From NCBI GenBank assembly GCA_050186725.1, contig JBFWYG010000002.1:5027-69026 (forward strand): a DNA stretch of 64,000 bases, written 5' to 3'. A program made the position numbers and the translations under genes. The stretch comes from Gammaproteobacteria bacterium (GTDB lineage: Bacteria; Pseudomonadota; Gammaproteobacteria; Ga0077536). This document shows positions 26,308-61,582 of the stretch, in pieces (position 1 is the stretch's first letter; each line of letters begins with the position of its first letter). The notes beneath the pieces were generated by a model that worked only from the letters and a program-made list of their open reading frames with translations, made no database searches and had not been told where the DNA came from.

Positions 26308-27321
26308 GTGGCGAGAAAAATCACTTACCAGCAGGCCATCAACGAGGCGCTGGACCAGGAAATGGCGCGCGACGAGAACGTCATCCTGATGGGCGAGGAC
26401 GTGGTCGGCGGCAGCGGCTCGGATGGCGAGATGGACGCCTGGGGCGGCGTGCTCGGCGTGACCAAGGGCCTCTACAAGAAATACGGCGACCGCATCCTGG
26501 ACACCCCGATCAGCGAATCGGGCTTCGTCGGCGCGGCAGTCGGCGCGGCGGCCTCGGGCCTGCGCCCGGTGTGCGAACTCATGTTCATCGACTTCATGGG
26601 CGTGTGCTTCGACCAGATCTTCAACCAGGCGGCCAAGTTCCGCTACATGTTCGGCGGCAAGGCCGAGACGCCGGTCGTGATCCGCACCATGTACGGCGCG
26701 GGCTTTCGCGCCGCCGCCCAGCACTCGCAGTGCCTGTACCCGCTGTTCACCCACATCCCGGGCCTGAAGGTCGTGCTGCCTTCTTCGCCCTACGACGTGA
26801 AGGGTCTGCTGATCCAGGCGATTCGCGACAACGACCCGGTGATCTTCTGCGAGCACAAGGTGCTCTACACGCTGGAAGGCGAGGTGCCCGAGGAGTCCTA
26901 TACCATCCCCTTCGGCGAGGCCAACGTGGTGCGCGAAGGCGACGACGTGACCATCGTCGCCTTCGGCCGCATGGTCCACCAGGCGAACAAGGCCGCGGCC
27001 GCGCTCGCCAAGGAAGGCGTGTCCTGCGAGGTCATCGATCCGCGCACCACCTCGCCGCTGGACGAGGACACCATCCTCGAGTCAGTCGAGAACACCGGCC
27101 GCCTGGTGGTGGTCGACGAGGCCCATCCGCGCTGCGGCATGGCAGCCGACATCTCCGCCCTGGTGGCGAAGAAGGCCTTCTCCTCGCTGAAGGCGCCGGT
27201 CGAGATGGTCACCGCGCCGCACACGCCGGTGCCCTTCAACGGCAAGCTCGAGGACCTCTACGTGCCGAGCGCCGAGCGCATCGCGGCCGCCGTGCGCGTC
27301 ACCGCGGGGTACGCCGCATGA
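26308..27321 (+). CDS. acoB: Acetoin dehydrogenase E1 beta subunit
   Basis: Transketolase-like pyrimidine-binding and C-terminal domains. GTG start with GGAG RBS, directly after the acoA stop. Confidence 0.8.
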   Translation: MARKITYQQAINEALDQEMARDENVILMGEDVVGGSGSDGEMDAWGGVLGVTKGLYKKYGDRILDTPISESGFVGAAVGAAASGLRPVCELMFIDFMGVCFDQIFNQAAKFRYMFGGKAETPVVIRTMYGAGFRAAAQHSQCLYPLFTHIPGLKVVLPSSPYDVKGLLIQAIRDNDPVIFCEHKVLYTLEGEVPEESYTIPFGEANVVREGDDVTIVAFGRMVHQANKAAAALAKEGVSCEVIDPRTTSPLDEDTILESVENTGRLVVVDEAHPRCGMAADISALVAKKAFSSLKAPVEMVTAPHTPVPFNGKLEDLYVPSAERIAAAVRVTAGYAA

Positions 27322-28427
27322 GCGCAGCCAAGATAGTGCCCATCACCATGCCCAAGTGGGGCCTCTCCATGCAGGAGGGCAAGGTGGTGGAGTGGCTGGT
27401 CCCAGTGGGCACCGAACTCAAGCTCGGCGACCATGTGCTCGACATCGAGACCGAGAAAATCGCCAACACCTTCGATGCGCTGGACGCGGGACTCCTGCGG
27501 CGCATCGTCGCCCAGCCCGACGAGGTGCTGCCCATCGGCGCGCTGCTCGGCGTGCTGGCGCCGGCGGAGGTGTCCGACGCTGACGTCGACGCCTACATCA
27601 CCGAGTTCCAGAAGAACTACGTGCCGCCGGCCACGGACGAGGAAGGCGCCGGCGACGGCGGCTGGAAATTCATCGAGGCCGGCGGCTACCGCCTGCGCTA
27701 CTCGAAGATGGGCGACGGCGCGCGCAACATCGTGCTGATCCACGGCTTCGGCGGCGACGCCGATCGCTGGGCGTTCACCCAGGAACCGCTCGCGGCGAAC
27801 GCCAGCGTCTACGCGCTGGATCTCCCCGGGCACGGCCAGTCGAGCAAGCAGTTGAGCGACGGCTCGGTGAAGCACCTCGCCGCCACGGTCATTGCCTTCA
27901 TGGACGCTGTCGGCATCGACCGGGCGGAGCTCATCGGCCACTCGCTCGGCGGCGCGGTCGCGCTGCAGGCGGCGGTCGATAACCCCGGGCGGGTGAGCGG
28001 GCTCGCGCTGATCGCTTCCGCCGGCCTCGGCGCGGAGATCAACGCGAGCTACATCAACGGCTTCATCGCCGCCGACTCACGCAAGGAGATGAAGCCGCTG
28101 CTGGAACAGCTGGTGGCCGACCCCGAGCTCGTGACCCGCACCCTCATCAACGACATGCTGCAGTTCAAGCGCATCGACGGCGTGGGCGCGGCGCTCGCCG
28201 CCATCGCCAAGGGCTTCCAGGATGGCAGCCAGCAGACGGTGAACCTGCGCGCGCACCTGGACGGCCTGGACGTGCCGGTCAAGGTCATCTGGGGGTCGAA
28301 GGACGCGATCATCCCGGCGAGCCACGCGGCCGGCCTGCCCGCCAAGGTCAAGGTGACGGTGCTGGACGGTTTCGGCCACCTGGTGCAGTTGGAAGCCGCG
28401 GCCGAGGTCAACAAGCTGCTGCTGTAG
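27318..28427 (+). CDS. acoC: Acetoin dehydrogenase E2-like component: lipoyl domain fused to alpha/beta-hydrolase fold
   Basis: N-terminal lipoyl attachment (DIETEKI, Lys in the hairpin). Linker, then HGFGGD and GHSLGG hydrolase motifs. ATGA overlap with acoB. Confidence 0.75.
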   Translation: MSAAKIVPITMPKWGLSMQEGKVVEWLVPVGTELKLGDHVLDIETEKIANTFDALDAGLLRRIVAQPDEVLPIGALLGVLAPAEVSDADVDAYITEFQKNYVPPATDEEGAGDGGWKFIEAGGYRLRYSKMGDGARNIVLIHGFGGDADRWAFTQEPLAANASVYALDLPGHGQSSKQLSDGSVKHLAATVIAFMDAVGIDRAELIGHSLGGAVALQAAVDNPGRVSGLALIASAGLGAEINASYINGFIAADSRKEMKPLLEQLVADPELVTRTLINDMLQFKRIDGVGAALAAIAKGFQDGSQQTVNLRAHLDGLDVPVKVIWGSKDAIIPASHAAGLPAKVKVTVLDGFGHLVQLEAAAEVNKLLL

Positions 28428-28497
28428 GTCGGACTTCAGTTCGACATTCGGCGTCTTTGCGGGACAGACCCCGGACGGGGTCTGTCCCATCCCTCCC
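28428..28497. repeat. REP-like structured extragenic element, family B (12-bp GC stem hairpin), directly after acoC stop
   Basis: gtcggactt...cgacatt...gggacagacccc-ggac-ggggtctgtccc-atccc. A second copy lies at 59020..59086 with an identical stem and a different loop. Confidence 0.5.
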
Positions 28498-32241: not shown

Positions 32242-34671
32242 ATGAGGTTCCGAGTAGCAAAATGGATCATGACGCACCGCTTCGGTGTGGGCATGGCCTT
32301 CCTCATCGTGACACTGGGTTTCATGAGCCAGTTTCCGAAAGTCGAGATCCGCACGATCTACAACGACTTCCTGCCGACCAACGAAGAGTTCGTGAAGATC
32401 TTCTTCGCGCATCGCAACTTCGGTAATCCGCTGACCATGTCCATCATGGTCAAGAACAAGAACGGCGACATCTACAACCCGGAAACGCTGGCCAAGGTCT
32501 ACGCCATCACGCGCGACATCGACCTCGCGCCGTATATCGACCATGACCAGATCATCTCCATCTCGACGGAGAAGATGCGCTACGCGGAAGCCACGCGTGA
32601 CGGCATCGACACCAAGCCGCTGATGAGCGACCATGCGCCGGCCACCGAGGAGGAGATCGCGGAGTTCCGTCGCCGCGTGAACATCTCCTCCGGCGCTCAG
32701 ACCTTCTACATCTCCGGCGACAGCACCGCGACCCTGATCAACGCCGCCTTCCTCGATACCATCGACTACGGCGAAGCGTTCAAGTACGTGCAGGATCTGG
32801 TGGTCAAGAACCGCGACGCCAACCACGAGGTACACCTCGTCGGACAGCCCGCGCTCACCGGCTGGGTGTACAAGCTGCAGCACCAGACCTACACCATCTT
32901 CGCCACCACCATCGGCGTGATGCTCCTGCTGCTGGTGTTCTACATGGGCAACATCGCCGGCACCGTGATGCCGCTCGCGAGCGCGGCGACCGCCGGCATC
33001 TGGGGCTTTGGCACCATCGGCTGGTACGAGCGTCCGATCGAGCCGCTCCTGATGATCGTGCCGCTGCTGCTGGTGGCCCGCTCCATCTCGCACTGCATTC
33101 AGTACACCGAGCGCTACTACGAGGTGCTGAATCATGTGAAGGACAAGGTGCTGGCCGCCGAGATCACCATGGCGATCATGATGGCGCCATCGATCCTCGG
33201 CATCTTCACCGACGTGTTCGGCATCATCTTCATCGCCATCGCGCCGATCAAGACGATGATCAACCACTCGATCTTCTGCGGCTGGTGGGCGTTCTGGATC
33301 ATCCCGACCGGCGTGTTCCTGGCCTCCATCCTGCTGTCCTACCTGCCGGTGCCGAATAATCTCGAGAAGATCGTCGGCGGCGCGGAGAAGGAATCCGCCT
33401 TCCATCGTTGGCAGACTGGGCTGCTGGAGAACATCGCGCACATCACCTACGGCAACGCCGCGCGCGTCACCGCCGTGGTGGTCACGATCGTTGCCGTCAT
33501 CGCGATCTACCTGACCTCGCAGATCAAGGTCGGCAACCCGGTCGAGGGCACCAACCTGCTGTGGAACGAGTCGGAGTTCAACACCGGCACGCGCGCCATC
33601 AACGCGCACTTCCCCGGCACCAACACGCTGGAAATCGTGCTGGAAGCCAAGGAGCGCAAGAACGACCATCGCGTGGTGAACACCCCGGACGTCGTGCAGG
33701 TGGCGACCGAGATGCAACGCTCGCTGGAATCGGATCGCTCCGATCCCAACCTGCCGCCGCGCGCCACGCTGTCGTTCTCGGACTACATGCGTGACATCAA
33801 CCGCCTGTTCGCCGGCGGTAACCCGAAGTGGATGCCGCTGGATCCGACGCCGGAAGCGATTTCGGCCGCCGGCTTCGCCGCGCTGATGGGCTCCAACGCC
33901 ATCAACTTCAGCCACGTCGCCGACTTCGAGTTCCAGGACTCGACGGTCTCCGCGTGGTTCCGCGACAACAAGCAGGGCACGGTGGACGCGGCGCTCGCCT
34001 CGGCCTTCGCGGCCGGCGAAAAGGTGGGTCTGGACCATCCCGAGTTCAAGGTGCGTATCGCCACCGGCGTGATCGCGCTCCAGCAGGCGATGAACAACGT
34101 GGTCAAGAAGTACCACTGGCTCATCCTCGGCTGCGTGAACATCGGCGTGTTCTTCCTGGCCTGGTACGCCTATCGGTCCATGGTCGCGGCCTTCCTGCTG
34201 CTGGTGCCGGTGAACCTGTCGAACTTCATGCTGATGGCCTCGATGCACGTCATCGGCATCGGTCTCGACATCAACGCGGCCATCGTCGCGGTGATGGGCG
34301 TGGGCGTGGGTATCGACTACGGCATCTACCTCTTGTCCCGCATCTGCGAGGAGTACGTGGCGCAGGACCAGGATCTGAAGAAGGCCATCTTTGCCTCGCT
34401 GACCACGACCGGCAAGGCCATCATGTTCACCGCGTCGATCATGCTGCTCGCCATCCTGCCGTGGTACTTCCTGTCGGATCTGAAGTTCATGGCCGACATG
34501 GGCGTGCTGCTGGTGGCCATCATGCTGATCAACATGGTGCTGTCGCTGGTCGTGCTGCCGCTCCTGGTGTGGTTCGTCAATCCGAACTTCATGCGCCGCA
34601 CGGACCTGATGGTCGGCGAGAACGTCGACCTGACGCAGTTCATGGACAAGGTCGACGAAGCCGTCGTCTGA
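32242..34671 (+). CDS. RND-superfamily exporter, MMPL/SSD family (paralog 1)
   Basis: 809 aa. Two 6-TM bundles, each preceded by a large periplasmic domain, and an SSD-like TM region. GGGAGAG RBS. About 55-60% identical to 51896..54310 by eye. Confidence 0.8.
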   Translation: MRFRVAKWIMTHRFGVGMAFLIVTLGFMSQFPKVEIRTIYNDFLPTNEEFVKIFFAHRNFGNPLTMSIMVKNKNGDIYNPETLAKVYAITRDIDLAPYIDHDQIISISTEKMRYAEATRDGIDTKPLMSDHAPATEEEIAEFRRRVNISSGAQTFYISGDSTATLINAAFLDTIDYGEAFKYVQDLVVKNRDANHEVHLVGQPALTGWVYKLQHQTYTIFATTIGVMLLLLVFYMGNIAGTVMPLASAATAGIWGFGTIGWYERPIEPLLMIVPLLLVARSISHCIQYTERYYEVLNHVKDKVLAAEITMAIMMAPSILGIFTDVFGIIFIAIAPIKTMINHSIFCGWWAFWIIPTGVFLASILLSYLPVPNNLEKIVGGAEKESAFHRWQTGLLENIAHITYGNAARVTAVVVTIVAVIAIYLTSQIKVGNPVEGTNLLWNESEFNTGTRAINAHFPGTNTLEIVLEAKERKNDHRVVNTPDVVQVATEMQRSLESDRSDPNLPPRATLSFSDYMRDINRLFAGGNPKWMPLDPTPEAISAAGFAALMGSNAINFSHVADFEFQDSTVSAWFRDNKQGTVDAALASAFAAGEKVGLDHPEFKVRIATGVIALQQAMNNVVKKYHWLILGCVNIGVFFLAWYAYRSMVAAFLLLVPVNLSNFMLMASMHVIGIGLDINAAIVAVMGVGVGIDYGIYLLSRICEEYVAQDQDLKKAIFASLTTTGKAIMFTASIMLLAILPWYFLSDLKFMADMGVLLVAIMLINMVLSLVVLPLLVWFVNPNFMRRTDLMVGENVDLTQFMDKVDEAVV

Positions 34672-40759: not shown

Positions 40760-40876
40760 TGCGTCTCCGGCGCGCTGCGCGCGCGCCTGGCCAGGCCTCT
40801 CCCGCCGCGCCGCGGGCGCGCGATCCGACGTGCTACACTCGAGGCCGTTCACGCACGCCACACGAGGGAGTCTCAC

Positions 40877-41860
40877 TTGTCGCGCGCCCACTCTGCACGG
40901 ATCGCGCGCGACGATGTCGTCCGCCTGAGCCAGCTCCGCTCGCTGCCCAACCTGGCCAAGCTCAGCCTGATCACAGGCCTGATGACCGGCCTCACCTGGC
41001 TGGCCTGGCACACTGAAGAGGCGCCGCTACGCTGGGCCGCCTACGTCGCCCTCGGCTACCTGTGGATGTCCATCGTGACCTTCATGCACGACGCCGGGCA
41101 CAACACGCTGTGGCCGCGACGCTGGCTGAACACCGCCTTCGGCGTCGTCGCCATGCTGCCGCTGTTCGCCTCGTTCATCGCCTTCAAGCAGGACCACTAC
41201 GAGCACCACCGCTTCAACCGCTCACCGCGCGATCCCGACGCATTCACCATGGGCAAACGCGGTGCGCTCGACTTCGTGCTGTTCTATGCCTACATGGCCT
41301 TCGGCGCGGTGCTGAGCCTGGTGCACTTCAACCTGCTCTACCCCATCGCGCGCTTCAACCGGCGACAGTGGGCCATGCACCTGTTCGAGACAGGCCTCAA
41401 GGTCGTGGTCTACTGGCTGGCACTGGGCTACGCGGCGCGCCACGGCGTGCTCGGCCGCGCGCTCGAAGTGTGGCTGTGGCCGGTGTTCTTCTTCTCGCTG
41501 TTCAATTCCATGCGCTTCATGGCCGAGCACTACGGCACGCCCTGGAACGCCGGACAGATGTCGGGCACGCGCACCATCACCTCGAACCGCCTGCACGCGT
41601 TCTTCTGGAACAACATCAACTGGCACATCGGCCACCACGTGTACCCGAGCGTGCCGTGGTACAACCTGGTGGAACTGCATCACCTTCTGCTCCCGCAGAT
41701 CGAAGCGAGCGGCGCGCTGGTCGACAAGAGCTACGTCGGCGTGTGCTGGCGGGCGCTGCGCGACGGGCCGGAGACGGAGACCCGGCTGGCACGGGCATTG
41801 GCGAAGCGCAGAGTCGCCGAACATGGCGAGTTGAAACCCGCCCTGCAGACACCGTTGTAG
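40877..41860 (+). CDS. Membrane fatty acid desaturase
   Basis: Histidine boxes HDAGH, HYEHH and HIGHHVYP in a 4-TM scaffold. The last 12 codons and the stop are encoded by a REP-A element. Confidence 0.8.
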   Translation: MSRAHSARIARDDVVRLSQLRSLPNLAKLSLITGLMTGLTWLAWHTEEAPLRWAAYVALGYLWMSIVTFMHDAGHNTLWPRRWLNTAFGVVAMLPLFASFIAFKQDHYEHHRFNRSPRDPDAFTMGKRGALDFVLFYAYMAFGAVLSLVHFNLLYPIARFNRRQWAMHLFETGLKVVVYWLALGYAARHGVLGRALEVWLWPVFFFSLFNSMRFMAEHYGTPWNAGQMSGTRTITSNRLHAFFWNNINWHIGHHVYPSVPWYNLVELHHLLLPQIEASGALVDKSYVGVCWRALRDGPETETRLARALAKRRVAEHGELKPALQTPL

Positions 41861-42020
41861 GGCCGATTTCAATCGGCCAGGCACGGCGCACAGACGAAAC
41901 GCCACGCATGGCGGGTTGAAACCCACGCCACAGGTGCCGCCGATGTAGGGCCGATTTCAATCGGCCAGGCACGACGCACGAACGCAGCGCCGCGCATGGC
42001 GGGTTGAAACCCGCCCTACA
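41822..42020. repeat. Array of about 2.5 direct copies of REP-like element family A (about 70-bp unit with two internal palindromes)
   Basis: Unit is catggcgggttgaaacccgccctgcag...gtagggccgatttcaatcggccaggcacggcgca. Copies at 41822-41890, 41907-41978 and 41995-42020 (partial). Confidence 0.6.
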
Positions 42021-43830
42021 GGGAGAACGGGAACACCAGCGGCGTGATGGCGATGGTGGTCGCGGCGACGACCAAGTCGAGGGGAATGCCGAAACGCAGG
42101 AAGTCGGCGAAACGGTAGCCACCGGGGCCGTAGACCATCATGTGCGTCTGGTAGCCGAGTGGCGTGGCGAAGCCGCAGGACGCGGCGATGGTCATGGCGA
42201 CCACGAAGGGCATGTGATCGACCCCCATCACGCGGGCGGTGGCGAGCGCGATGGGGAACATCAGCACCGCGGCCGTGTTGTTGCTGAGCAGTTCGGTGGC
42301 GAGCATGGTGGAGAGATAGACGGTGGCGAGCGCCATCCAGGGCGAGGAAGCGGACATGTTCGCCACGCCGCTGGCCGCTAGCGCCGCGAGCCCGGTCTTC
42401 TGCAACGCCGTGCCGATGCCGATGGTGGTGGCGATGACGATGAGCACCTGCCAGTCCACCGTGCGGCGCGCGGCGTCCGCTCCGCAGCAGCGTCCAAGCA
42501 GCATGGCGACCGCAGCGAGCATGCCGGCGTGCAACATCGAATAGCCGTGGGACTCGAACCAGGGGTGCTGCTCGAAGAGCGTCGCGGCCGCGACCATGGC
42601 GAGGAGGATGCCGAGCGCGAGCGGCGCCTTGTGGCGCGCGAGCGGCGCGGAGTCATCGATGCCCGAGACCAGGAAGAAGTCGCGCGCGTTGCGCTGCTGC
42701 TGGACGAAGGCCGGGCGCGCTTCCACCAGCAGGGTGTCTCCGACCTCCAGCACCACGTCGCCGAGCTTCTGGTAGAGGCGCTGGCCGCCGCGCGCGACGC
42801 CGATCACCACCGCGTTGTACTGGGTGCGGAAGCGTCCTTCGCGAATGCTCTTGCCGAGCAGCGGGGACTGGTCCGACACCACGGCTTCGATCAGCATGCG
42901 CTGCTCGCGCGGCCCGTCGAGCTTGAAGACCTGCTCCGTGGCCGGCGCCAGGCCGCGCATCTTCTGCAGGTCGAGAACCGCGTCGACCACGCCGACGAAC
43001 ACCAGGCGATCGTTCGCCTGCAGACGGAAGCTGGCGCCGACCGCCGCCATCACCTGGCCATCGCGATCGACCTCCGCCAGGTAGCTGCCGGGCAGGTGCC
43101 GCAGGCCGGCCTCTTCGATGCTGCGCCCCGCGATGGGCCCGTCCGGCATGACCAGCATTTCGACCGTGTAGGCGCGCGGGTCACTCTCGTCCCGCAGCGG
43201 CGAGCCACGCTTTGGCAGCAGAACTGGGGCGAGCAGCACGATGTAGGCCAGGCCGGCGAGCGCGCAGGCGAGGCCGACGGGCGAGAGCGTGAAGAAGCTG
43301 AAGCCGCGGTCGACGACGCCCGCCCGCACCGCGTCATTCAGCAGACCCGCGACGATGACGTTGGTACTTGTGCCGATGAGCGTGCACAACCCGCCCAGGA
43401 TGGCGGCGTAGCTGAGTGGCATGAGCAGACGGGACAAAGGGATCTGCAGCCGCCGGCCCCAATCCGACACCGCGGGCAGCATGGCCGCGACCAGCGGCGT
43501 GTTGTTCATGAAGGCCGACAGACCGGCGACCGGCAGCATCATGCGCAGCTGCGCCCCGGCCACGCTCTTCGGCCGACCGAACCAGGCGTTGGCGAGCATG
43601 CCCATGGCGCCCGTGTCGCGCAGCCCGGCGACCGCGATGTAGAGGATCCCCACCGTCATCACGCCTTCGTTGGCGAAGCCGGCCAGGGCCTCCTTGGTGC
43701 CGAGCACCCCGCCGAGCAGGAGCGTCGCGAGCGCGCCGAGCATGACCAGGTCGGTGGCCAGCGAGGTCAGCGCCAGCAGGCCGAAAATCGCGCTGACCAC
43801 CGCGAGCGTGAGCCACGCGTCGAAGCTCAT
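42016..43830 (-). CDS. SLC13/DASS-family anion permease with two central TrkA-C (RCK_C) domains
   Basis: Two transporter halves flank two RCK_C-like soluble repeats. Start taken at MSFDAWLTL. The upstream 36 codons of the ORF are Arg/Pro-rich and non-protein-like. Confidence 0.8.
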   Translation of the reverse strand: MSFDAWLTLAVVSAIFGLLALTSLATDLVMLGALATLLLGGVLGTKEALAGFANEGVMTVGILYIAVAGLRDTGAMGMLANAWFGRPKSVAGAQLRMMLPVAGLSAFMNNTPLVAAMLPAVSDWGRRLQIPLSRLLMPLSYAAILGGLCTLIGTSTNVIVAGLLNDAVRAGVVDRGFSFFTLSPVGLACALAGLAYIVLLAPVLLPKRGSPLRDESDPRAYTVEMLVMPDGPIAGRSIEEAGLRHLPGSYLAEVDRDGQVMAAVGASFRLQANDRLVFVGVVDAVLDLQKMRGLAPATEQVFKLDGPREQRMLIEAVVSDQSPLLGKSIREGRFRTQYNAVVIGVARGGQRLYQKLGDVVLEVGDTLLVEARPAFVQQQRNARDFFLVSGIDDSAPLARHKAPLALGILLAMVAAATLFEQHPWFESHGYSMLHAGMLAAVAMLLGRCCGADAARRTVDWQVLIVIATTIGIGTALQKTGLAALAASGVANMSASSPWMALATVYLSTMLATELLSNNTAAVLMFPIALATARVMGVDHMPFVVAMTIAASCGFATPLGYQTHMMVYGPGGYRFADFLRFGIPLDLVVAATTIAITPLVFPFSL

Positions 43831-51895: not shown

Positions 51896-54310
51896 GTGCT
51901 CGTGACGTTACGCCATCGCTTCGCCGCGCTCATCATCAATAACCGCGCCATCTCGTTCGGCATTCTCATGCTGATCACCGCGTTCTTCGCCTATGGCCTG
52001 AAGGACGTGCAGATCAGGACGATCTTCTCCGACCTGTTCCCCAAGGATCACGAGTTCGTCAAGACCTACATGGATCATGGGAACTTTGGTAACCCGCTCA
52101 CGGTTACCATCATGATCAAGCATAAGAACGGCGACATCTACAACGCCGAGACCTTGGCCAAGGTGTACCGCATGACGCGGGACATCGACCTCACGCCCTC
52201 GGTCGATCACGATCAGATCCTGTCGCTGGCCTCCGAGAAGGCGCGCTACGCCGAAGCCACGCCGGACGGCGTGGACATGAAACCGATGATGGAGGACACC
52301 GCGCCCGACACGCCGGAGGAACTCGAGGAGTTCCGCAAGCGGGTCGACCGCTCGAACAACGTGCGCAAGTTCCTCATCTCCGAGGACGAGAGCGCCACGC
52401 TGATCACGGCGACCTTCATCGAGTTTCACCTCGACTACGGTGTCACCTTCCGCTTCATCCAGGACATGGTCGAACGCGAGCGTGACGCCAACCACGAGAT
52501 CTACGCTGCCGGCCAGCCGATGCTGACCGGTTGGGTCTACACCTACCAGCGCCAGATGCTGATGATTTTCGGCGTCACCGCCGGACTGCTGGTGCTGTCG
52601 CTGGTGTTCTACATGCGCAACGTGCCCGGCGTGGTGGCGCCGATCTTCGTCAGCGTGATCGGTGGCATCTGGGGCTTCGGCCTGACCGGCTGGATCAAGC
52701 AGCCCATCGAACCGCTGATCATGGTGGTGCCGATGCTGCTGGTCGCGCGCGCCTTCTCGCACTGCGTGCAGTACCTGGAGCGCTTCTACGAGGTGCTCTA
52801 CGAGGTCGGGGACAAGAAGAAGGCGGCGACGGTGTCGCTCGGCGTGATGATGGCGCCCGGCATCCTCGGCATCGTGACCGACATGATGTGCCTGTTCCTG
52901 ATCGCCATCGCGCCGATTCCTGTCATGGAGCGTTTCGCGATCTTCTGTGGCTTCTGGGCGCTGATCCTCATTCCGACCGACGTGTTCCTCGCCTCGATCC
53001 TGGCCTCCTACCTGCCCACGCCGCGTAACGTGGACGTGCTGACCGGCAAGACCGACCGTGTGACCTGGCACACGCGGCTGATCGGTGTGCTCGGACGGGC
53101 CGCCAAGCTGAGTCATGGCAAATTGGCACCGGTCACCAGCGTGTTCTTCGTGCTGCTGTTCGCCGGCGGCTTCTACGTGCAGTCGCTGATGAAGGTCGGC
53201 AACCCGGTGGAAGGCTCCAACCTGCTGTTCGACGGATCGGAATTCAATACCGCGGTGCGCGCCGTCAATTCGCACTTTCCAGGGCTGATGACGCTCGAGA
53301 TCGTGTTCGAAGGCAAGGGCGGCAAGGAGTCCCCGCGCATCCTGCAGCAACCGCAGACCATTCACACCATGCTCGACATCCAGCGCCGCCTGGAGTCCTA
53401 CGAAAACCCACCGGAGGCAACCCTGACCTTCGCCGACTACCTGCCGGAAGCGAGTCGCATTTTCGCCGGCGGCAACCCCAAGTGGTCGCCGCTGGACGTG
53501 AGCGAAGACGCGACCAACGGCGCGGTCAACGCGCTGCTGCTGGGCTCGAGTCCCAAGGCCTACAGCCACGTCATGGACTTCACCCTGCAGAACGGCACGC
53601 TCTCGCTCTGGTACAAGAACAACAAGCAGGACACCGTCGATCTGGCCCTGCGCCAGGCGCACGAGGTGCTGAGCGAAGTCGGGACCGATTTTCCCGACTT
53701 CCGCATCCGCATGGCGACCGGCGCCATCGCGCTCCAGCAGTCGGTCAACGACGTGGTGGCGACCAATCGCCTGACCATCCTGGCGTCCTTGAACGTGCTG
53801 ATCCTGATAGTCTGCAGCCTGGCCTACCGCTCGGTGGTCGCGGGTATCATCCTGCTGATCCCGGTCAACCTGTCCAACGTGCTGCTCGACGCCACCATGG
53901 TCGGTCTCGGCATCGGCCTGGACGTCAACAGCCTGCCCATTGCTTCCATCGGCATCGGGGTCGGCATCGACTACGGCATCTACCTGCTGTCGCGCATGTG
54001 CGAGGAGTTCCAGGACAGCGGCCACTATGGCGAAGCGATCGACAAGGCCATCACCACCTCGGGCAAGGCCATCACCTTCACCGCGAGCATCGTGCTGCTC
54101 AGCATCCTGCCGTGGTATTTCCTGTCGGACCTGAAATTCCTGTCCGACATGGGCCTGCTGCTGGTCATGGTCATGACCATCAACATGGTCATCTCGCTGC
54201 TCGTGCTGCCGCTCCTGGTGTGGTGGATCAAGCCGCGCTTCATCGCCTCCGAGCACCAGCTGATCTCGGAGAAGATCGACTACAGCGCCCACGCCGCCGG
54301 TCTTTCCTGA
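51896..54310 (+). CDS. RND-superfamily exporter, MMPL/SSD family (paralog 2)
   Basis: Same architecture as 32242..34671, with colinear similarity along the whole length. The likely true start is GTG 51902 (GGAGG 8 nt upstream). Confidence 0.8.
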   Translation: MLVTLRHRFAALIINNRAISFGILMLITAFFAYGLKDVQIRTIFSDLFPKDHEFVKTYMDHGNFGNPLTVTIMIKHKNGDIYNAETLAKVYRMTRDIDLTPSVDHDQILSLASEKARYAEATPDGVDMKPMMEDTAPDTPEELEEFRKRVDRSNNVRKFLISEDESATLITATFIEFHLDYGVTFRFIQDMVERERDANHEIYAAGQPMLTGWVYTYQRQMLMIFGVTAGLLVLSLVFYMRNVPGVVAPIFVSVIGGIWGFGLTGWIKQPIEPLIMVVPMLLVARAFSHCVQYLERFYEVLYEVGDKKKAATVSLGVMMAPGILGIVTDMMCLFLIAIAPIPVMERFAIFCGFWALILIPTDVFLASILASYLPTPRNVDVLTGKTDRVTWHTRLIGVLGRAAKLSHGKLAPVTSVFFVLLFAGGFYVQSLMKVGNPVEGSNLLFDGSEFNTAVRAVNSHFPGLMTLEIVFEGKGGKESPRILQQPQTIHTMLDIQRRLESYENPPEATLTFADYLPEASRIFAGGNPKWSPLDVSEDATNGAVNALLLGSSPKAYSHVMDFTLQNGTLSLWYKNNKQDTVDLALRQAHEVLSEVGTDFPDFRIRMATGAIALQQSVNDVVATNRLTILASLNVLILIVCSLAYRSVVAGIILLIPVNLSNVLLDATMVGLGIGLDVNSLPIASIGIGVGIDYGIYLLSRMCEEFQDSGHYGEAIDKAITTSGKAITFTASIVLLSILPWYFLSDLKFLSDMGLLLVMVMTINMVISLLVLPLLVWWIKPRFIASEHQLISEKIDYSAHAAGLS

Positions 54311-54652
54311 CGACCGGGCCCTGCCGTCCCGTCCTGCCCTGCACAGAGCCGAGGGGCAGGGCGGGCGACCTCCCGTCCCACCCCGACCGGGACGTCGCGG
54401 CTGTCCCCGCGACGCCGGGGTGATCGGGTATCATTGACCGCCGCTACGCGCGCTTCGTCGTGCCTGCCGACCGCCCGGCGCGGACGCCGGGTCGCGCCAG
54501 GCGCGTGGCCGTTTCGCCTTGATTCGTCCTGCCGGCACGTCCGCCAGGCGACCGGCGACGTCGGCCTGCTCCCGTGGACACTGACCGCCGAGTCGAAAGG
54601 TCGACACACACCGCATGTTCATCCTTGCCGTTGGCGCGGGCGCGCCCTTGTC

Positions 54653-57127
54653 ATGAAGCGCGCGCTGCAAGCCCTGTACGAAGGCCTGGTCATCGACCGT
54701 CCAGCCTGGACCCTGCTGCTGCTGCTGCTGCTGCTCGGCGCGGCGGCGAGCGGCGTGCCGAAGTTCCGGCTCGATGCCTCGGCGGACTCGCTGCTGCTGG
54801 AGAGCGATCCGGATCTGAAGCAGTTCCGCGACCTCGCCCAGCGCTACCACGCGCGCGACTTCCTGTTCATGACAGTGACGCCGCGGGAAGCGCTGCTGGC
54901 GCCCGCCACGCTCACCTTGATCAAGTCGCTGCGCGAGGAACTGAAGGCGCTGCAGACGGTGGACTCGGTGACCACGGTGATCGACGTGCCGCTGGTCAGG
55001 AACATCAAGGGCGGACTGTCCAAGGTGGTGTCGAACTACCGCACGCTCGAGTCCAAGGACGTCAACCCCGACAAGGCGCTGGAAGAACTGACCACCAGCC
55101 CGCTGTATCGCAACATGGTGGTCAGCGCCGACGGCAAGACCACCGCCATCCGCATCACGCTGAAGCCGCCGCCGGCGGGCTTCGCGGAACTCCAGTACGA
55201 ACGCGGCGACCTGCTCTACAAGCGCGCCACCGGCCACGCCAGCGCGGCGGAACTGGTGCGCCTGGCCGAGATCGAGCCGCTCTACCAGCGCCAGAAGGAC
55301 GCGGTCGACGCCACCAACCACGCCACCATCGACCAGCTGCGCGAGGTCATGCGCACCCACCGCGACCAGGCCGAGATCCACCTCGGCGGCGTGGCGATGA
55401 TCGCCGACGACATGATCGGCTACGTGCGCAACGACATCGTGGTGTTCGGCACCGCCTCCTTCCTGCTCGCCATCGGCATGCTGGGCTACATCTTCCGCGA
55501 GGCGCGCTGGGTGGTGATCCCGGTGCTGAACTGCGGCTTCATCACCCTCGGCATTCTGGGCGTCCTCGGTCACGCGGGCTGGAAGCTGACGGTCATCTCG
55601 TCGAACTTCCTCGCGCTCACGCTGATCCTCGCCATCTCGATCAACATCCACCTCATCGTGCGCTACCGCGAGCTGTACCGCGAGCGGCGCGAGCAGAGCC
55701 ACCGCGACCGCGTGCGGCAGGTGTGCCGCGACATGGCGAGCCCCTGCCTGTACACCTCGCTGACCTCGATCATCGGCTTCGGCTCGCTGCTCTCGAGCGA
55801 CATCCGCCCCATCGCCGATTTCGGCGCGATGATGAGCCTGAGCCTCATCCTGGTGTACTTCGTGGTGTTCACGCTGGTGCCGGCGATGATGATCCTGCTG
55901 CCGGAACGGGCGCCCCGGGTCGACGACGACGGCCAGTCGGGCTTCACCGTGTGGCTCGCGCGCATCACCGACCGCCACGGCTTCGGCGTGATGGCGGCGA
56001 CCACCCTGGTGGTGGGACTGAGCGCGGTCGGCATCTCGCGGCTCGAGGTCGAGAACAGCTTCATCAACTATTTCCGCGAGAAGACCGAGATCTACCAGGG
56101 CCTGAAGCGGGTCGACGAGGCCTTGGGCGGCACCACGCCGCTCGAAATAGTGCTGAAGTTCCCGTCCACCGAGGTCAAGCCCACCGGCGGCGACGAACTG
56201 GAAGCGGCGCTGTTCGAGGACGACGGCGGCGACAAGTCCGACACCTGGTTCACCGCCGACAAGATCGAGCGCATCAAGCGCGTGCACGACTACGTCGCGG
56301 CGATCCCCGGGGTCGGCACGGTGCAGTCGCTGGCGTCCATCGTGCGCGTGGCCGAGCAGCTGAACGAGGGGCGTGAGTTCGATCCCTTCGAGCTCAACGT
56401 GATCTACAAGCGCATCCCGGCGGCGCTGCGCGAGGAACTGCTGACGCCCTACATCAACATCGAGCACGACGAGGCGCGCATCACGCTGCGCATCCTGGAC
56501 TCGACGCCGAACCTGCGCCGGCAGGCGCTGCTCGATCACCTCAATCGCGGCCTGACCGAGGAGTTGCGCCTGGAACCCGGCCGCGACTTCGAGGTGGCCG
56601 GCCTGCTGGTGCTCTACAACAACATGCTGCAGAGCCTGTACAGCTCGCAGATCGCCTCGATCGGCAGCGCCATGCTCGGCATCCTGCTGACGCTCTGGTT
56701 CCTGTTCCGCAACCTGCGCGCGGCCTTCATCGGCATCGTGCCCAACCTGGTCGCGGCAGGCGCGGTGCTGGGCTTCATGGGCTGGGCGGAAGTGCCGCTC
56801 GACATGATGACCATCATGGTCGCGGCGCTCACCATGGGTATCGCGGTCGAAGACTGCATCCATTACCTGTATCGCTACCGGCTGGAGTACTTGCGCCTGG
56901 GCAACGGCCTCGAGACGATGTACCACTGCCACGGCAACATCGCCCGCGCCGGCTTCTACACCACGCTGGTGGTGTGCGCCGGCTTCTCGATCCTGATGCT
57001 GTCGAACTTCACGCCCAGCATCCTGTTCGGCCTGCTGACCACCATCGCGATGGGCATCGCCATCCTGGCCGCGCTGACCTTGATGCCGAAGCTGCTCCTG
57101 ATGTGGGAGCCGTTTCGCAAGGCGTGA
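54653..57127 (+). CDS. RND-superfamily exporter, MMPL family, HpnN-like subtype
   Basis: 824 aa. Poly-Leu signal-anchor (TLLLLLLLLGAAASG). Two periplasmic domains and two 6-TM bundles. Distinct from the other four paralogs. Confidence 0.75.
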   Translation: MKRALQALYEGLVIDRPAWTLLLLLLLLGAAASGVPKFRLDASADSLLLESDPDLKQFRDLAQRYHARDFLFMTVTPREALLAPATLTLIKSLREELKALQTVDSVTTVIDVPLVRNIKGGLSKVVSNYRTLESKDVNPDKALEELTTSPLYRNMVVSADGKTTAIRITLKPPPAGFAELQYERGDLLYKRATGHASAAELVRLAEIEPLYQRQKDAVDATNHATIDQLREVMRTHRDQAEIHLGGVAMIADDMIGYVRNDIVVFGTASFLLAIGMLGYIFREARWVVIPVLNCGFITLGILGVLGHAGWKLTVISSNFLALTLILAISINIHLIVRYRELYRERREQSHRDRVRQVCRDMASPCLYTSLTSIIGFGSLLSSDIRPIADFGAMMSLSLILVYFVVFTLVPAMMILLPERAPRVDDDGQSGFTVWLARITDRHGFGVMAATTLVVGLSAVGISRLEVENSFINYFREKTEIYQGLKRVDEALGGTTPLEIVLKFPSTEVKPTGGDELEAALFEDDGGDKSDTWFTADKIERIKRVHDYVAAIPGVGTVQSLASIVRVAEQLNEGREFDPFELNVIYKRIPAALREELLTPYINIEHDEARITLRILDSTPNLRRQALLDHLNRGLTEELRLEPGRDFEVAGLLVLYNNMLQSLYSSQIASIGSAMLGILLTLWFLFRNLRAAFIGIVPNLVAAGAVLGFMGWAEVPLDMMTIMVAALTMGIAVEDCIHYLYRYRLEYLRLGNGLETMYHCHGNIARAGFYTTLVVCAGFSILMLSNFTPSILFGLLTTIAMGIAILAALTLMPKLLLMWEPFRKA

Positions 57128-57138
57128 TCGACGCCGTG

Positions 57139-57230
57139 CATGGCGGGTTGAAATTCGCCCTGCAGACCGACTGCGATCGGTCGCGCACGGGGCCCTTGTA
57201 GGGCCGATTTCAATCGGCCAGGCACGGCGC
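57139..57230. repeat. REP-like element family A, single copy with inserted extra palindrome
   Basis: catggcgggttgaaattcgccctgcag ... gtagggccgatttcaatcggccaggcacggcgc. Begins 11 nt after the MMPL stop. Confidence 0.55.
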
Positions 57231-57253
57231 CGGATGCGGGAACACACGCCCTC

Positions 57254-57663
57254 TCACCCCGCCCGCGTCGCTCCGACCATCACCGCCGCCATCACGCAGG
57301 GCCGATCGCTACGATTCTGCCAGCGGTGACGCGTGCCGTTCTGCACCACGCAGTCGCCGGCGCGTACGCAGCGTTCCGCGCCGTCGTCGAGTTCGAGCCA
57401 CACTTCGCTGCTCAGCATCACGACGAAGTCGAGCGTGTCGGTGGTGTGCATGCCATGCGCGTCCTTCTCGTGGGCATGGCCCAGTCCCGGCACCTTGGCG
57501 TTGTATTCCGCGCGCAGCGCTTCCCGGCAGGTAGGTGCTGACGCCGAGCGAGGGATCGCCGCCAGCGCGTGGCACCAGAGGCGCGGCGCCGGTGGTCCAC
57601 AGGGTGTTCAGCTTCCGGCCCGGCCTTGCCGGCCACGTCGTGACCGGTGACGATGCGTCGCAT
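57254..57663 (-). pseudogene. Cupin-domain gene disrupted by two frameshifts
   Basis: A recognisable cupin protein is split over three minus-strand frames. MRRIVTGHDVAGKAG... is in one frame. ...LNTLWTTGAAPLVPRAGGDPSLGVSTYLP... is in a second. ...PGLGHAHEKDAHGMHTTDTLDFVVMLSSEVWLELDDG...GDCVVQNGTRHRWQNRSDRPCVMAAVMV is in a third. Confidence 0.55.
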
Positions 57664-57810
57664 GGCGACAGGCTCCTCATCTGTTTCCGGCAATTGCTGG
57701 TCGGGCTTCAGCCCGACATTGCCGGCGACGTCGAGGTCACACTCGGACGCGCTGCATCGTCAACACACACGGGGGCGATTTGCCCCAGCACTTCACCCAG
57801 GAGCAAGTCC

Positions 57811-59019
57811 ATGCAGCAACTCGTCATCATCGGCGGCGGCTTCGCCGGCCTGTGGGCCGCGCTGGTCGCGGCGCGCGAAGCGCACGTCGCCGACCGGCCG
57901 CTGGCCATCACCCTGGTCGCGCCCGATGACGCGCTGACCGTGCGTCCGCGGCTCTACGAGCCCTTCACACCAGCCTTCCGCGCGCCCTTCGCGCCGCTGT
58001 TCGAGCCGCTTGGCATCGCCCAGCTGCGCGCCCACGCGACCGATCTCGATACCGTCGCGCGATGCGTCCGGGTCCAGCTTGCCGACGGCGCGTCGCGTGA
58101 CCTGCCCTACGATCGCGTGGTGCTCGCGGCCGGCAGCCGCCAGGCGCCGCTGCCCGTAGCCGGCGCCGCCGAACATGCGCTCGACCTCGACACTTACGTC
58201 GCCGCGGAACGCTTCCACGCGCATCTCGCGGCCGTCGTCGCGGCGCCCGTCTCGCCGGCGACCTCGACCTTCGTCGTGATCGGCGGCGGCTTCACCGGCA
58301 TCGAGATGGCCTGCGAACTGCGCCGCCACCTGCGCGCGCTCGGCGCCACCGCGGCCGCGCGCGACGCGCGGGTGGTGCTGGTCGAGCGCGCCACCGAAAT
58401 CGGGCCGGAACTCGGCGCCGGTCCGCGCGCGACCATCCTCGAGGCTCTGCAGCACTGCGGCGTGGAACTGCGACTCGGCGCGCAGGTATCACGTATCGAG
58501 GCCGACGCGGTCACCTTCCAGGATGGCGAACGCCTGCCCTGCGCGACCACCGTCATCGCCACCGGCCTGCGCGCCCATCCACTCACCGGCGGCCTGGGCG
58601 TGGAACTCGATGGGCAGGGCCGGCTGCCGGTGGACGAACATCTGGAGGTGATCGGCGCGCCGGGGGTGTATGCCGCCGGCGACCTGGCGCGCGCGCGCGT
58701 CGATGACGCGGGCCATGTCGCGCTGATGTCCTGCCAGCATGCCGTGCCCCAGGGCAAGCACGCCGGCTACAACGCCGCCCACGCCCTGCTGGGCCTCGCG
58801 CCGCGGGCCTACCGCCAGCCGGACTACGTCACTTGCCTGGATCTCGGCGACTACGGCGCGGTGTTCACCACCGGGTGGGAACGCACGGTGGCGCAGGCGG
58901 GCGCGGACGTGAAGGCGCTGAAGCAGACCGTCAACACCCAGTGGATCTACCCGCCAAAAGGCGACCTCGAGACGCTGCTCGCGGCCTGCGACATCGACGC
59001 GCCCTGGCCACCCGTGTAG
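57811..59019 (+). CDS. NAD(P)/FAD-dependent oxidoreductase (type II NADH dehydrogenase-like, pyridine nucleotide-disulfide family)
   Basis: Two dinucleotide-binding GxGxxG motifs (IIGGGFAG, VIGGGFTG) and a GD motif (YAAGDLA). AGGAG RBS. Confidence 0.8.
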   Translation: MQQLVIIGGGFAGLWAALVAAREAHVADRPLAITLVAPDDALTVRPRLYEPFTPAFRAPFAPLFEPLGIAQLRAHATDLDTVARCVRVQLADGASRDLPYDRVVLAAGSRQAPLPVAGAAEHALDLDTYVAAERFHAHLAAVVAAPVSPATSTFVVIGGGFTGIEMACELRRHLRALGATAAARDARVVLVERATEIGPELGAGPRATILEALQHCGVELRLGAQVSRIEADAVTFQDGERLPCATTVIATGLRAHPLTGGLGVELDGQGRLPVDEHLEVIGAPGVYAAGDLARARVDDAGHVALMSCQHAVPQGKHAGYNAAHALLGLAPRAYRQPDYVTCLDLGDYGAVFTTGWERTVAQAGADVKALKQTVNTQWIYPPKGDLETLLAACDIDAPWPPV

Positions 59020-59086
59020 GTCGGACTTGCACCCGACATTCCAACGCTAGCTGGGACAGACCCCGTGCGGGGTCTGTCCCTTCCCC
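59020..59086. repeat. REP-like structured element family B, second copy, directly after the ndh-like stop
   Basis: gtcggactt...cgacatt...gggacagacccc-gtgc-ggggtctgtccc-ttcccc. Identical 12-bp stem to copy 1, loop differs. Confidence 0.5.
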
Positions 59087-59140
59087 AAAAAAATGGCGCC
59101 CCGAAGGGCGCCATGGCAGAGCGAAACCGGGCGTCCTGCC

Positions 59141-61582
59141 TCAGATCGATGTTTTGGCGAGAGCGTCTGCCTGCCAGCCACCGAGGTTGCGGTCGCGCAG
59201 GGTGTCGGAATCGTCGATGTGCGAGTCCATGACGAACTTCGGCTTGAACACCCGGATCCACAGCGGGATCACGGTGATGGCGCCGATCATGTTGCTGGTC
59301 AGGAGCAGGCACAGGAGCAGCGCCATCTCGCTGTTGAAGCGCAGCGAGGAACCCGGGATCCAGTAGATGATGCCCGCCATCACGGTCATGCCGGTGAAGA
59401 GGATGGCCGCGCCGGTGGTGCGCATCGAGGTGACGATGGCGTCCAGCAGCGAGCGATGGCGCATCTCCTCCTTCAGGCGGTCGAGCATGTAGATCGCGTA
59501 GTCGACGCCGACGCCGATACCCACCGAGGTCACCGGCAGCGTGTTGACGTTGAGACCGATGTCGCGAATGGTCATGAACGCGCGGTTGGTCATCACGCAG
59601 ATGATCAAGAGCACGAACACCATGAGCCCGGCGAAGATCGAGCGATAGGCGATCATGATGGCCAGCGTCACCAGGGTGATGATGGTGATGGTCATCTTGA
59701 GGTCCGAGATCTCGGTCTCCTCGTTGGCCGCCGCCGTCGTACCGATGATGCCGCCCGCGAGCAGCGGGGTCACGCCTTCCATCTTGTGCGTCTCCAGGAA
59801 GGCCTTGGCCTTGGCGACCGCCTCGGACACCGTCTGGCCGGTCGCGTCCTTGTAGAACACCGTGAAGTTCGCGATGCGGCCCTCCAAGTCCATGTACTCC
59901 AGGATCACGCCCGGCACCGCCGCGCCCGCCTCGTACATGAACAGCGTGTTGCCGATGTCCTTCTGCGTCGCGGGGATCAGCGACCAGCGCGGGTCGTCGT
60001 AGTGATACAGGCGGTTGATCGAGCGCACCAGGTGCGGAATGTCGCGCGTGCCGCCGAAGTTGGAGGTGCCGGCCATGTAGCGACCGAACTCTTCCATCAT
60101 CGCGACCACCTCAGGGTCCTTCATCTTGTGGGGCTCGTTGCCCTCGAAGAAGATGTTGAACTGGTTCGCGCCGGCGAAACGATCGGCAATGGTCTTGGCC
60201 GCGACGTTGTACTCCTGGTCCTGGAACAGGATGGGCGAACCAGGCTGCTTCTCGCCGATGTCGACGTGCCAGCCGAACCAGAACGCCCACACGGTGAGCG
60301 CGATGGCGCCCACGAAGATGGTCGAGGAGGCCTTCGGCCCGACCAGGAACACGCCCATGTTGTGCATCATGCGCGACGGCAGGTGCTTGTGCTCTTCCTG
60401 CACGGTGACCTTGGGCGTCGGCAGCACGGACATGATGAGCGGCACCAGCACCGCCACTGTGATCAGGTTCGACGCGCCCCAGAACGAGCAGTAGATGCCG
60501 AGCTTGGCGATCAGCGGCATGGAGGACAGGGCCAGCACCAGCAGCGCCATGGCGTCGGCCAGGATGCCGAGACCCGCCGGCAGGATCAGCTCGCCCATGG
60601 CGATGCGCACCGCCTGTTCCTTCTCGCGCCCGACGCGAATTTCGTCGTAGTAGCGCTCCATCATCTGCACGCAGTGACTGGCCGTTCGCGCCGATATGAG
60701 GATCGGTACCACCAGGATCAGCGGGTCCAGGTTGTAGTGCATCCAGCCGACAAAGCCGAGGCCCCAGATGGCCGACAGCGCCGTGCCGAGCGTCGGCACC
60801 ACCACGCCCGTGACCGAGCCGAAGTGAATCCAGAGCAGCAGCACCATCACCGCGCCGGTGACGCCGAAGATGGTCTTCAACTCCTTCGAGTAGAAGTAGA
60901 TCCAGCCCTTCAGCATCGGCTCGCCGGCGATGTAGAGCCGCGTCTGCCCGTCCTTCTCCACCTCTTCCTTCAAGCTCTGCAGCTTGGTGTGGATGTCGAC
61001 GTAGTTCAGGCGCTCTTCGTCGAAGCCGGCGACCACCAGCGCGGCGCGGCCGTCGGTGGATAGATAAGTGCCGTAGACGATGTCGTTGTTGAACGATTCC
61101 TCGCGCAGTTGCTTCAGCGCCTCGGGATCGGTCGGCAAATCCTTGGGCAACACCGACTCGGACTTGATCAGACCGCCGGCCGTGGTGCGGATGCGACGGA
61201 TCTTGGGATGCGCGATGCTCGCCACCTGGTAGTGGTTCACGCCGGCGATCAGGTCCACCTGCTCGGTGATGTGCACGATCTTCTTCAGCGTGTCGTGGGT
61301 GAACACGTCGCCGTTGGGATCAGTGACCTCCAGCGCCATGGTCACCACGTTGGCGCCGCCGAAGGTCTGCTTCATGCGGTTGTAGTTGACGATGTACTCG
61401 TGCTTGGCGGGCAGCAGGTCGGCGAAGCGCGAGAACACTTCGATCTTCGGGATGTGCAGGGCGAGCATGATGGTCGGGACCAGGATCACCGCGAAGGAGA
61501 ACCACTTGCGGTCCATCATCCAGTTCGCGATGGCGTGACCACGCGTGATGCGTGGCGGCGGTGGCGGCACGACCGAACTCAT
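59141..61582 (-). CDS. RND-superfamily exporter, MMPL/SSD family (paralog 4)
   Basis: 813 aa, same architecture. About 65% identical over the alignable region to the adjacent upstream gene. Confidence 0.8.
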   Translation of the reverse strand: MSSVVPPPPPRITRGHAIANWMMDRKWFSFAVILVPTIMLALHIPKIEVFSRFADLLPAKHEYIVNYNRMKQTFGGANVVTMALEVTDPNGDVFTHDTLKKIVHITEQVDLIAGVNHYQVASIAHPKIRRIRTTAGGLIKSESVLPKDLPTDPEALKQLREESFNNDIVYGTYLSTDGRAALVVAGFDEERLNYVDIHTKLQSLKEEVEKDGQTRLYIAGEPMLKGWIYFYSKELKTIFGVTGAVMVLLLWIHFGSVTGVVVPTLGTALSAIWGLGFVGWMHYNLDPLILVVPILISARTASHCVQMMERYYDEIRVGREKEQAVRIAMGELILPAGLGILADAMALLVLALSSMPLIAKLGIYCSFWGASNLITVAVLVPLIMSVLPTPKVTVQEEHKHLPSRMMHNMGVFLVGPKASSTIFVGAIALTVWAFWFGWHVDIGEKQPGSPILFQDQEYNVAAKTIADRFAGANQFNIFFEGNEPHKMKDPEVVAMMEEFGRYMAGTSNFGGTRDIPHLVRSINRLYHYDDPRWSLIPATQKDIGNTLFMYEAGAAVPGVILEYMDLEGRIANFTVFYKDATGQTVSEAVAKAKAFLETHKMEGVTPLLAGGIIGTTAAANEETEISDLKMTITIITLVTLAIMIAYRSIFAGLMVFVLLIICVMTNRAFMTIRDIGLNVNTLPVTSVGIGVGVDYAIYMLDRLKEEMRHRSLLDAIVTSMRTTGAAILFTGMTVMAGIIYWIPGSSLRFNSEMALLLCLLLTSNMIGAITVIPLWIRVFKPKFVMDSHIDDSDTLRDRNLGGWQADALAKTSI

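Follow-up and report, generated by a model that had tools for sequence, protein, structure and literature searches.

The junction between a fatty acid desaturase gene and a convergent transporter gene in this gammaproteobacterial contig is very probably occupied by a BIME-like cluster of GTAG REP elements, composed of REPIN-like dimers, that caps both genes. The repeats fill the convergent 3' junction completely, and the stop codons of both the desaturase and the transporter are REP-supplied. In the following, family A denotes the repeat, the window is the whole stretch of DNA analyzed (64 kb; 64,000 nucleotides), and L numbers designate loci from other genomes and metagenomes.

Anatomy of the family-A array

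The array between the desaturase and transporter genes spans 41815-42024, for which TRF reports a period of 88 bp, 2.4 copies and 80% matches. An initial annotation made from the window alone had rightly noticed a repeat here, although it put the unit at about 70 bp in 2.5 directly oriented copies. It also described two internal palindromes, which are in fact one 22-bp REP in opposite orientations. In this family-A unit, GTAG is unpaired and precedes a hairpin with an 8-bp stem and a 2-nt loop; the stem arms are either GGCCGATT/AATCGGCC or GGCGGGTT/AACCCGCC. Two types were resolved by pattern search of the 64-kb window, and they differ only by compensatory stem changes (CGA/TCG versus GGG/CCC). 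Type F, GTAGGGCCGATTTCAATCGGCC, has exact plus-strand copies at 41857, 41945 and 57198. Type R, GTAGGGCGGGTTTCAACCCGCC, has an exact minus-strand copy at 41998-42019 and three further minus-strand copies with two to three mismatches (41825-41846, 41910-41931 and 57142-57163). The same patterns gave 0 matches in 100 dinucleotide-preserving shuffles. GTAG stands at the head of every exact copy, and GCAG or GTGG at the head of decayed ones.

Five REPs alternate in the array in the order R'-F-R'-F-R, with spacers of 10, 31, 13 and 31 nt. Copy 1 (type R, decayed by 2 mismatches, GCAGGGCGGGTTTCAACTCGCC; 41825..41846, minus strand) lies inside the desaturase coding sequence, where it encodes G-E-L-K-P-A-L; its counterpart at the orthologous locus L108 is intact. 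Copy 2 (type F, an exact GTAGGGCCGATTTCAATCGGCC; 41857..41878, plus strand) pairs with copy 3 (type R, decayed by 3 mismatches, with the head GTGG; 41910..41931, minus strand), and together they form dimer 1 (41857-41931), in which GTAG is on the outside and the spacer is 31 nt long. Dimer 2 (41945-42019) is built of copy 4 (type F, exact in the pattern search; 41945..41966, plus strand) and copy 5 (type R, an exact GTAGGGCGGGTTTCAACCCGCC; 41998..42019, minus strand). Its arms, 41944-41977 and 41987-42020, measure 34 nt each and are 79% complementary. The ends of the spacer are also complementary in the window's lineage (ATGCACGG...CGTGCAT), which produces a longer hairpin.

As RNA, the array folds with far lower energy than shuffled controls, whichever strand is taken (z = -4.7 and -5.7), and the minimum-free-energy structures pair each REP with its partner in the dimer. 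A scan of the array for intrinsic terminators found no U-tract terminator and only one weak match, no more than in shuffled sequence. Comparison with Rfam yielded chance matches only, far below gathering thresholds, and a tRNA and tmRNA scan returned none.

REP-borne stop codons and turnover at gene ends

The desaturase gene (40877..41860, plus strand) was recognized as an ORF with a match to Pfam PF00487 (E=1.3e-39), and its product ends in ...AKRRVAEHGELKPALQTPL. The last 12-15 codons (41815-41860; ...VAEHGELKPALQTPL) constitute a REP-derived tail. The initial annotation had attributed both the C-terminus and the stop codon to the first repeat copy. This holds for the C-terminus, but the stop codon (41858-41860) is the TAG in the GTAG of the next REP, copy 2. 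When 60 homologs were aligned, the conserved core of the desaturase stopped near RLARALAxR, and the tails beyond it varied in length and sequence. Since this region is so variable across the family, a REP-coded tail is likely tolerated.

Comparison with the closest orthologs agrees with the earlier proposal that an extragenic repeat has remodelled the end of this gene. The same REP-coded tail recurs in protein P0001 (91% identity; loci L108 and L109), where it reads ...HGGLKPALQAQL and the REP is intact. Protein P0002 (93% identity; locus L107) ends 12 residues earlier in ...RRRAL, and its TAG stop belongs to a REP of a second family, family B (GTAGGTCGGACTTCTGTCCGAC). Orthologs at 74% identity (L110 and L111) are REP-free, with unrelated tails that stop at TGA or TAG, and no REP was found downstream of the desaturase in either locus. 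Both have different neighbors, so that only the desaturase gene end is comparable. On the other side of the gene, no REP remnant is visible upstream of the desaturase (40760-40876). In L192-L194, whose transporter is 82-83% identical to that of the window, the transporter faces motB and motA directly in convergent orientation, with no desaturase in between. Because of this absence, the desaturase would have been either gained by insertion in the window's clade alone or lost elsewhere.

The convergent gene (42016..43830, minus strand; Pfam PF03600 and PF02080) encodes a CitMHS/TrkA_C (SLC13-type) transporter that ends in ...FPFSL*. Its stop codon is the TAG (minus strand, 42018-42016) in the GTAG of the outermost REP, copy 5, and the outermost REP likewise provides the transporter stop in L108 (...FPFHL*) and, from family B, in L107 (...FPFHA*). 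REP-free orthologs of the transporter (82-84% identity) end in ...FPFHP*, encoded by CAT CCC TGA, and the REP-bearing relatives end in ...CAC CTG TAG or ...CAC GCG TAG. In the alignment of these ends the REP-borne TAG falls on the codon that the native TGA occupies in the REP-free genes, and the last sense codon changes from CCN to CTG or GCG in the REP-bearing genes. Since the REP-free orthologs use TGA at that codon, we infer that the REP itself supplies the stop; the idea of a REP landing on a pre-existing TAG is unsupported for the same reason. No target-site duplication is visible at this end when REP-bearing and REP-free sequences are aligned, a comparison confounded by the fact that the REP-free relatives are without the desaturase here.

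Two other genes in the window end in the same manner: family-B REPs at 28424 and 59016 contribute the TAG stops of ORFs 26571..28427 and 57535..59019. The REP hairpin starts at the stop codon itself in these two genes as well as in the desaturase and the transporter. Of 184 TAG-headed family-A REPs in the fetched loci taken together, 28 (15%) end a supported ORF, compared to 6% of other TAGs, where an ORF was counted if it had at least 100 codons and support from third-codon-position G+C. This enrichment is significant (Fisher p = 2e-5) and modest, at 2.7-fold.

The content of the desaturase/transporter junction differs between relatives: five family-A REPs are present in the window, three in L108, and three family-B REPs occupy the same junction in L107. 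The window exceeds L108 by exactly one 88-bp block, and the two 88-bp blocks of the array are 88% identical, spacers included. These two observations make whole-block tandem duplication the likeliest route, and the array has most likely grown by tandem duplication of 88-bp blocks (REP, spacer, REP, spacer), as judged from sequence comparison.

One might instead regard the array as a bidirectional 3'-end element, that is, a terminator or mRNA stabilizer that is selected by the host and is neither selfish nor mobilizable. Its exact position between convergent genes would be expected of such an element, as would the strong hairpins on both strands and the stem covariation, which speaks for a maintained structure; REP hairpins are also found at both stop codons in all three lineages. 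However, the content of the junction turns over (three family-A REPs, five, or family B) between relatives that are 91-93% identical, and no REP is present at the transporter end in more distant relatives. The same sequence is moreover scattered over unrelated loci and taxa, and there is no U-tract. A generic benefit to the host may coexist with mobility, yet it leaves the origin of the repeats unexplained, and we consider a purely host-selected element unlikely.

The outermost GTAG coincides with the stop positions of both convergent genes in three lineages with 91-95% protein identity. It is conceivable, though we would not favor it, that insertion of REPs or REPINs, or gene conversion between REPs, is targeted to the stop boundary, or that a hairpin at 0 nt from the stop is selected as a translation-coupled attenuator. 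If true, either reading would make gene-end capture intrinsic to GTAG REPs, beyond crowding that is simply tolerated. Our preferred reading continues to be a BIME-like GTAG REP cluster.

The initial annotation had also placed a further copy near 57139-57230, and we found this second family-A locus at 57132-57230. It begins with a decayed type R REP (GCAGGGCGAATTTCAACCCGCC; 57142..57163, minus strand), 14 nt 3' of the TGA stop of an MMPL-family gene, followed by an exact type F REP from the pattern search (57198..57219, plus strand). Together they form a dimer (57142-57163 and 57198-57219) whose GTAG ends face inward across a 34-nt spacer. A related locus, L095 of the metagenome-assembled genome (MAG) JAIEQK01, is 94% identical in DNA to positions 54588-57161 of the window (about 2.6 kb). 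The type R REP after the MMPL gene is common to both and intact in L095; beyond it, the window has the type F REP versus family-B REPs in L095. The distance from the MMPL gene to the Pyr_redox_2 gene (window 57162-57795) is about 630 bp, compared to about 144 bp of REPs in L095 (3526-3669). The longer region contains an ORF of 123 aa (57309..57680, minus strand) with no Pfam match, and it represents another variable, REP-associated intergenic region.

Family B is a second GTAG REP family with a consensus of approximately GTAGGTCGGACTTCAGTCCGAC. Its members in the window lie at 28424-28445, 57696-57717 and 59016-59037, all on the plus strand, and in L107 it takes the place of family A between the desaturase and the transporter, as it does in L095 behind the MMPL gene. 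The ORF that ends in the REP at 59016 (57535..59019) encodes the Pyr_redox_2 protein. A perfect 28-bp palindrome, GGGACAGACCCCG-N3-CGGGGTCTGTCCC, occurs at 28461-28488 and 59053-59080, each time 15 nt downstream of a family-B REP (28424 and 59016), and suggests either a composite repeat or a third family of palindromes. After the second palindrome, at 59086-59115, an A-run with a GC hairpin (AAAAAAATGGCGCCCCGAAGGGCGCCAT) resembles a terminator. The window further contains two sets of diverged paralogous segments with 67-79% DNA identity. One set comprises 32345-34629 and 52011-54280, 19.67 kb apart; the latter lies upstream of the long ORF 54434..57127, which matches Pfam MMPL, and just overlaps its annotated start. 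In the other set, 59201-61218 and 61983-64000 are arranged in tandem with an offset of 2782 bp.

Dispersal of family A and its link to RAYT genes

Family A is widely dispersed. When one genome per GTDB species was searched with the pattern GTAGGGCSGRTTTCAAYCSGCC, in which two stem positions are free on each arm, at least 106 matching loci emerged among the species representatives. This bears out the earlier suggestion that the repeats belong to a dispersed REP family instead of having arisen by local duplication. Isolates that carry family A include Lysobacter koreensis, with at least 10 loci, Cognatiluteimonas, Luteimonas, Vulcaniibacterium, Pseudoxanthomonas, three Denitromonas species, Thauera and Stutzerimonas, and many MAGs are also among the matches listed. 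The window's closest relative among these matches is MAG JAIEQK01, with at least 12 family-A loci. The window itself has seven copies at two loci in 64 kb, and a copy number for the source genome would be an extrapolation from these figures together with the related MAG.

With only two family-A loci within the window, one could think of a purely local tandem duplication plus one stray copy 15 kb away, in which case no dispersed family would exist. Local duplication did contribute to the array, as the homology of the 88-bp blocks extends across the spacers too. The occurrence of the same 22-mer at 106 or more loci in many genomes, at least 12 of them in JAIEQK01, and in the same dimer arrangement refutes it as the sole explanation, and we regard it as highly improbable.

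The variation among family-A copies points to a maintained structure. Both variable stem pairs are Watson-Crick pairs in 144 of the 150 exact-pattern matches listed, with G-T pairs in 4 and mismatches in 2, and four stem variants are represented among these 150. Because 144 of the 150 listed copies keep both pairs across four variants, the hairpin is the conserved feature of family A. Where copies neighbor each other among the matches listed, GTAG-outside dimers are the most frequent arrangement (71), followed by GTAG-inside dimers (26) and tandem copies (12). Each genome has its own characteristic spacer length: neighboring copies are separated by 28-31 nt in the window's lineage, by 2 nt in a Comamonadaceae MAG and by 77 nt in L. 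koreensis.

Among the isolates listed, family A is found in Lysobacterales, Rhodocyclales and Pseudomonadales. Beyond the isolates, MAGs labelled Planctomycetia, Nitrospirota, Caulobacterales, Paracoccaceae and Acetobacteraceae contain the exact family-A 22-mer (L003, L008, L016, L037, L064, L074, L082, L086 and L103). Such taxonomic scatter could reflect horizontal spread of a REP/RAYT pair or mis-binned contigs.

No RAYT or other Y1 (HUH) transposase was detected in the 64-kb window by phmmer with an approximate E. coli TnpA-REP query, followed by jackhmmer with the resulting matches. Within the 106 pattern-match loci listed there are two RAYT genes, one in L. koreensis (L017) and one in Stutzerimonas nitrititolerans (L023). 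The L. koreensis gene was rejected as the cognate enzyme, as it is frameshifted and flanked by a different REP (GTAGCCCGGGTAAGCG...). It lies at 570-1230 of L017 between inverted copies of GTAGCCCGGGTAAGCGCAGCGCACCCGGG and appears inactivated. Since the REP that flanks it is not family A, L. koreensis hosts at least two REP families. ORFs between REP pairs in L014, L021, L022 and L026 were also considered as RAYT candidates and proved to be ordinary genes on inspection. The S. nitrititolerans gene adjoins GTAGGGCCGAACTTGTTCGGCC and GTAGTACCGAATTCATTCGGCC. Its product matches PF01797 and NF047646, 'REP-associated tyrosine transposase', the latter with 151 bits (cut-off 80), and its best PDB match is 4er8, TnpA-REP.

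A metagenome scan with a RAYT alignment retrieved 80 loci, and REPs that differ from family A or B by 2-4 mismatches lie within the stored flanks of 12 of them. Individual checks confirmed REPs directly beside the RAYT gene in L113, L114, L116, L117 and L136. The flanking REPs include GTAGGGCCGAATTCATTCGGCC (L114), GTAGGGCCGACTTCAGTCGGCC (L117), GTGGGGTCGATTTCAATCGACC (L136) and GTAGGTCGGGCTTCAGCCCGAC (L113), and the REP-flanked RAYT genes score about 150 bits against NF047646 (cut-off 80). An exact family-A REP was not found beside any of the 80 RAYT loci retrieved, the closest having 2-3 mismatches. This sequence likeness places families A and B in the class of REPs served by the L023-type RAYT clade, with a putative RAYT in the host genome. 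Family A's cognate RAYT is thus presumed, because the 64-kb window holds none and none of the 80 loci carries an exact family-A REP.

The association with RAYTs also bears on whether the repeats could be MITEs, miniature elements derived from a classical DDE insertion sequence, bounded by terminal inverted repeats and accompanied by target-site duplications. In favor of this, the units are short and repeated, do not code for protein and contain inverted repeats. Yet they are GTAG-tagged short hairpins that occur as singletons, as both kinds of dimer and in tandem, not as a fixed element bounded by terminal inverted repeats, and near-identical REPs flank Y1 (HUH) RAYT genes. We therefore attach next to no probability to a MITE origin.

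Proposed mechanism and relation to known systems

We propose that the usual dispersed unit in the window's lineage is a heterodimer of about 75 bp, consisting of an F REP, a 28-31-nt spacer and an inverted R REP, with GTAG on the outside. This unit would correspond to the 'HH' dimer of Di Nocera et al., the equivalent of a REPIN, and could fold into one long hairpin as single-stranded DNA or RNA. Its dispersal would be catalyzed in trans by a RAYT whose gene lies in another part of the genome. The array at 41.8 kb can then be understood as one solo R-type REP plus two heterodimers, the outer GTAG tags of which came to serve as the TAG stops of both convergent genes. The leftmost REP was probably absorbed into the desaturase frame, where it would have replaced the native tail and stop by 12-15 REP-encoded codons. 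As a consequence, a stable hairpin starting right at the stop codon is predicted for the end of either mRNA. By analogy, such hairpins should protect or define the 3' ends of the mRNAs, and they may dampen translation of the upstream gene, as do E. coli REPs located less than 16 nt from a stop codon.

Many of these features have precedents in the GTAG REP superfamily, which includes the SMAG repeats of Stenotrophomonas maltophilia (Di Nocera, De Gregorio & Rocco 2013, PMC3733652). Its members have an unpaired GTAG, a 6-9-bp stem and a 2-3-nt loop, fall into compensatory sub-families, and occur as singletons, dimers of both kinds, heterodimers and clusters (PMC3733652). They favor sites downstream of ORFs, between unidirectional as well as convergent ORFs, and have already been documented at ORF ends with the TAG of GTAG as the stop codon (PMC3733652). 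Family A shares the GTAG tag, stem and loop size, sub-families, arrangements and ORF-end siting with this superfamily. Its consensus, GTAGGGC-SGR-TTTCAA-YCS-GCC, was absent from the searchable literature text, with Table 1 of Nunvar 2010 and the Di Nocera 2013 supplements included; this search covered text, whereas the family consensuses are listed in Figure 1 of Di Nocera. Querying the literature for the exact sequence gave a single match, which was unrelated. As far as this text search goes, the specific family-A consensus appears undescribed, while gene-end capture is a documented property of the class.

The array is also reminiscent of E. coli BIMEs and of the REP clusters of Xanthomonas campestris (PMC2817692) in its regular spacing and alternating orientation. 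Nunvar et al. 2010 (PMC2817692) described BIMEs as regularly spaced REPs of alternating orientation and RAYTs as being flanked by their REPs. Two sub-types alternate in both systems, F and R in the array and Y and Z in E. coli BIMEs, and the spacers of the array fall into classes of 10-13 and 31 nt. As in BIMEs, the copy number differs between relatives by whole units. The REP sequence, however, is different from that of E. coli BIMEs, for which binding of IHF, gyrase and Pol I is known. The REPIN-RAYT system (Bertels & Rainey; bioRxiv 10.1101/2021.07.10.451892) offers a further parallel, with an inverted REP doublet, one long hairpin and a lineage-specific spacer, and REPs related to family A flank RAYT genes. 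In contrast to that system, the doublets here are heterodimers of two stem variants and the RAYT of the host genome is putative. Finally, according to the account of Liang, Rudd & Deutscher 2015 given in PMC12306157, ribosomes stall at E. coli REPs that lie less than 16 nt from a stop codon, and the upstream gene is translated less. The array resembles the REPs of that account in having a hairpin at the stop; its REP sequence differs, and an effect on translation is putative.

These observations have practical consequences for genome annotation. REP arrays in high-GC genomes yield spurious ORFs, such as 41222-41926, 41616-42122 and 56956-57225. The initial annotation was right that these three are spurious, but they are not mere translations of the repeats: they run antisense, mostly across real genes, and include REPs at one end only. 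REP arrays also alter the ends of real genes, and tails such as ...GELKPALQTPL are best regarded as repeat-derived and not as functional sequence. The occupied and empty sites described here constitute a small comparative data set on the poorly understood spread of REPs, raising no new question in themselves. The locus provides a clean natural example of REP turnover at a single junction among close relatives, with GTAG tags replacing native TGA stops.
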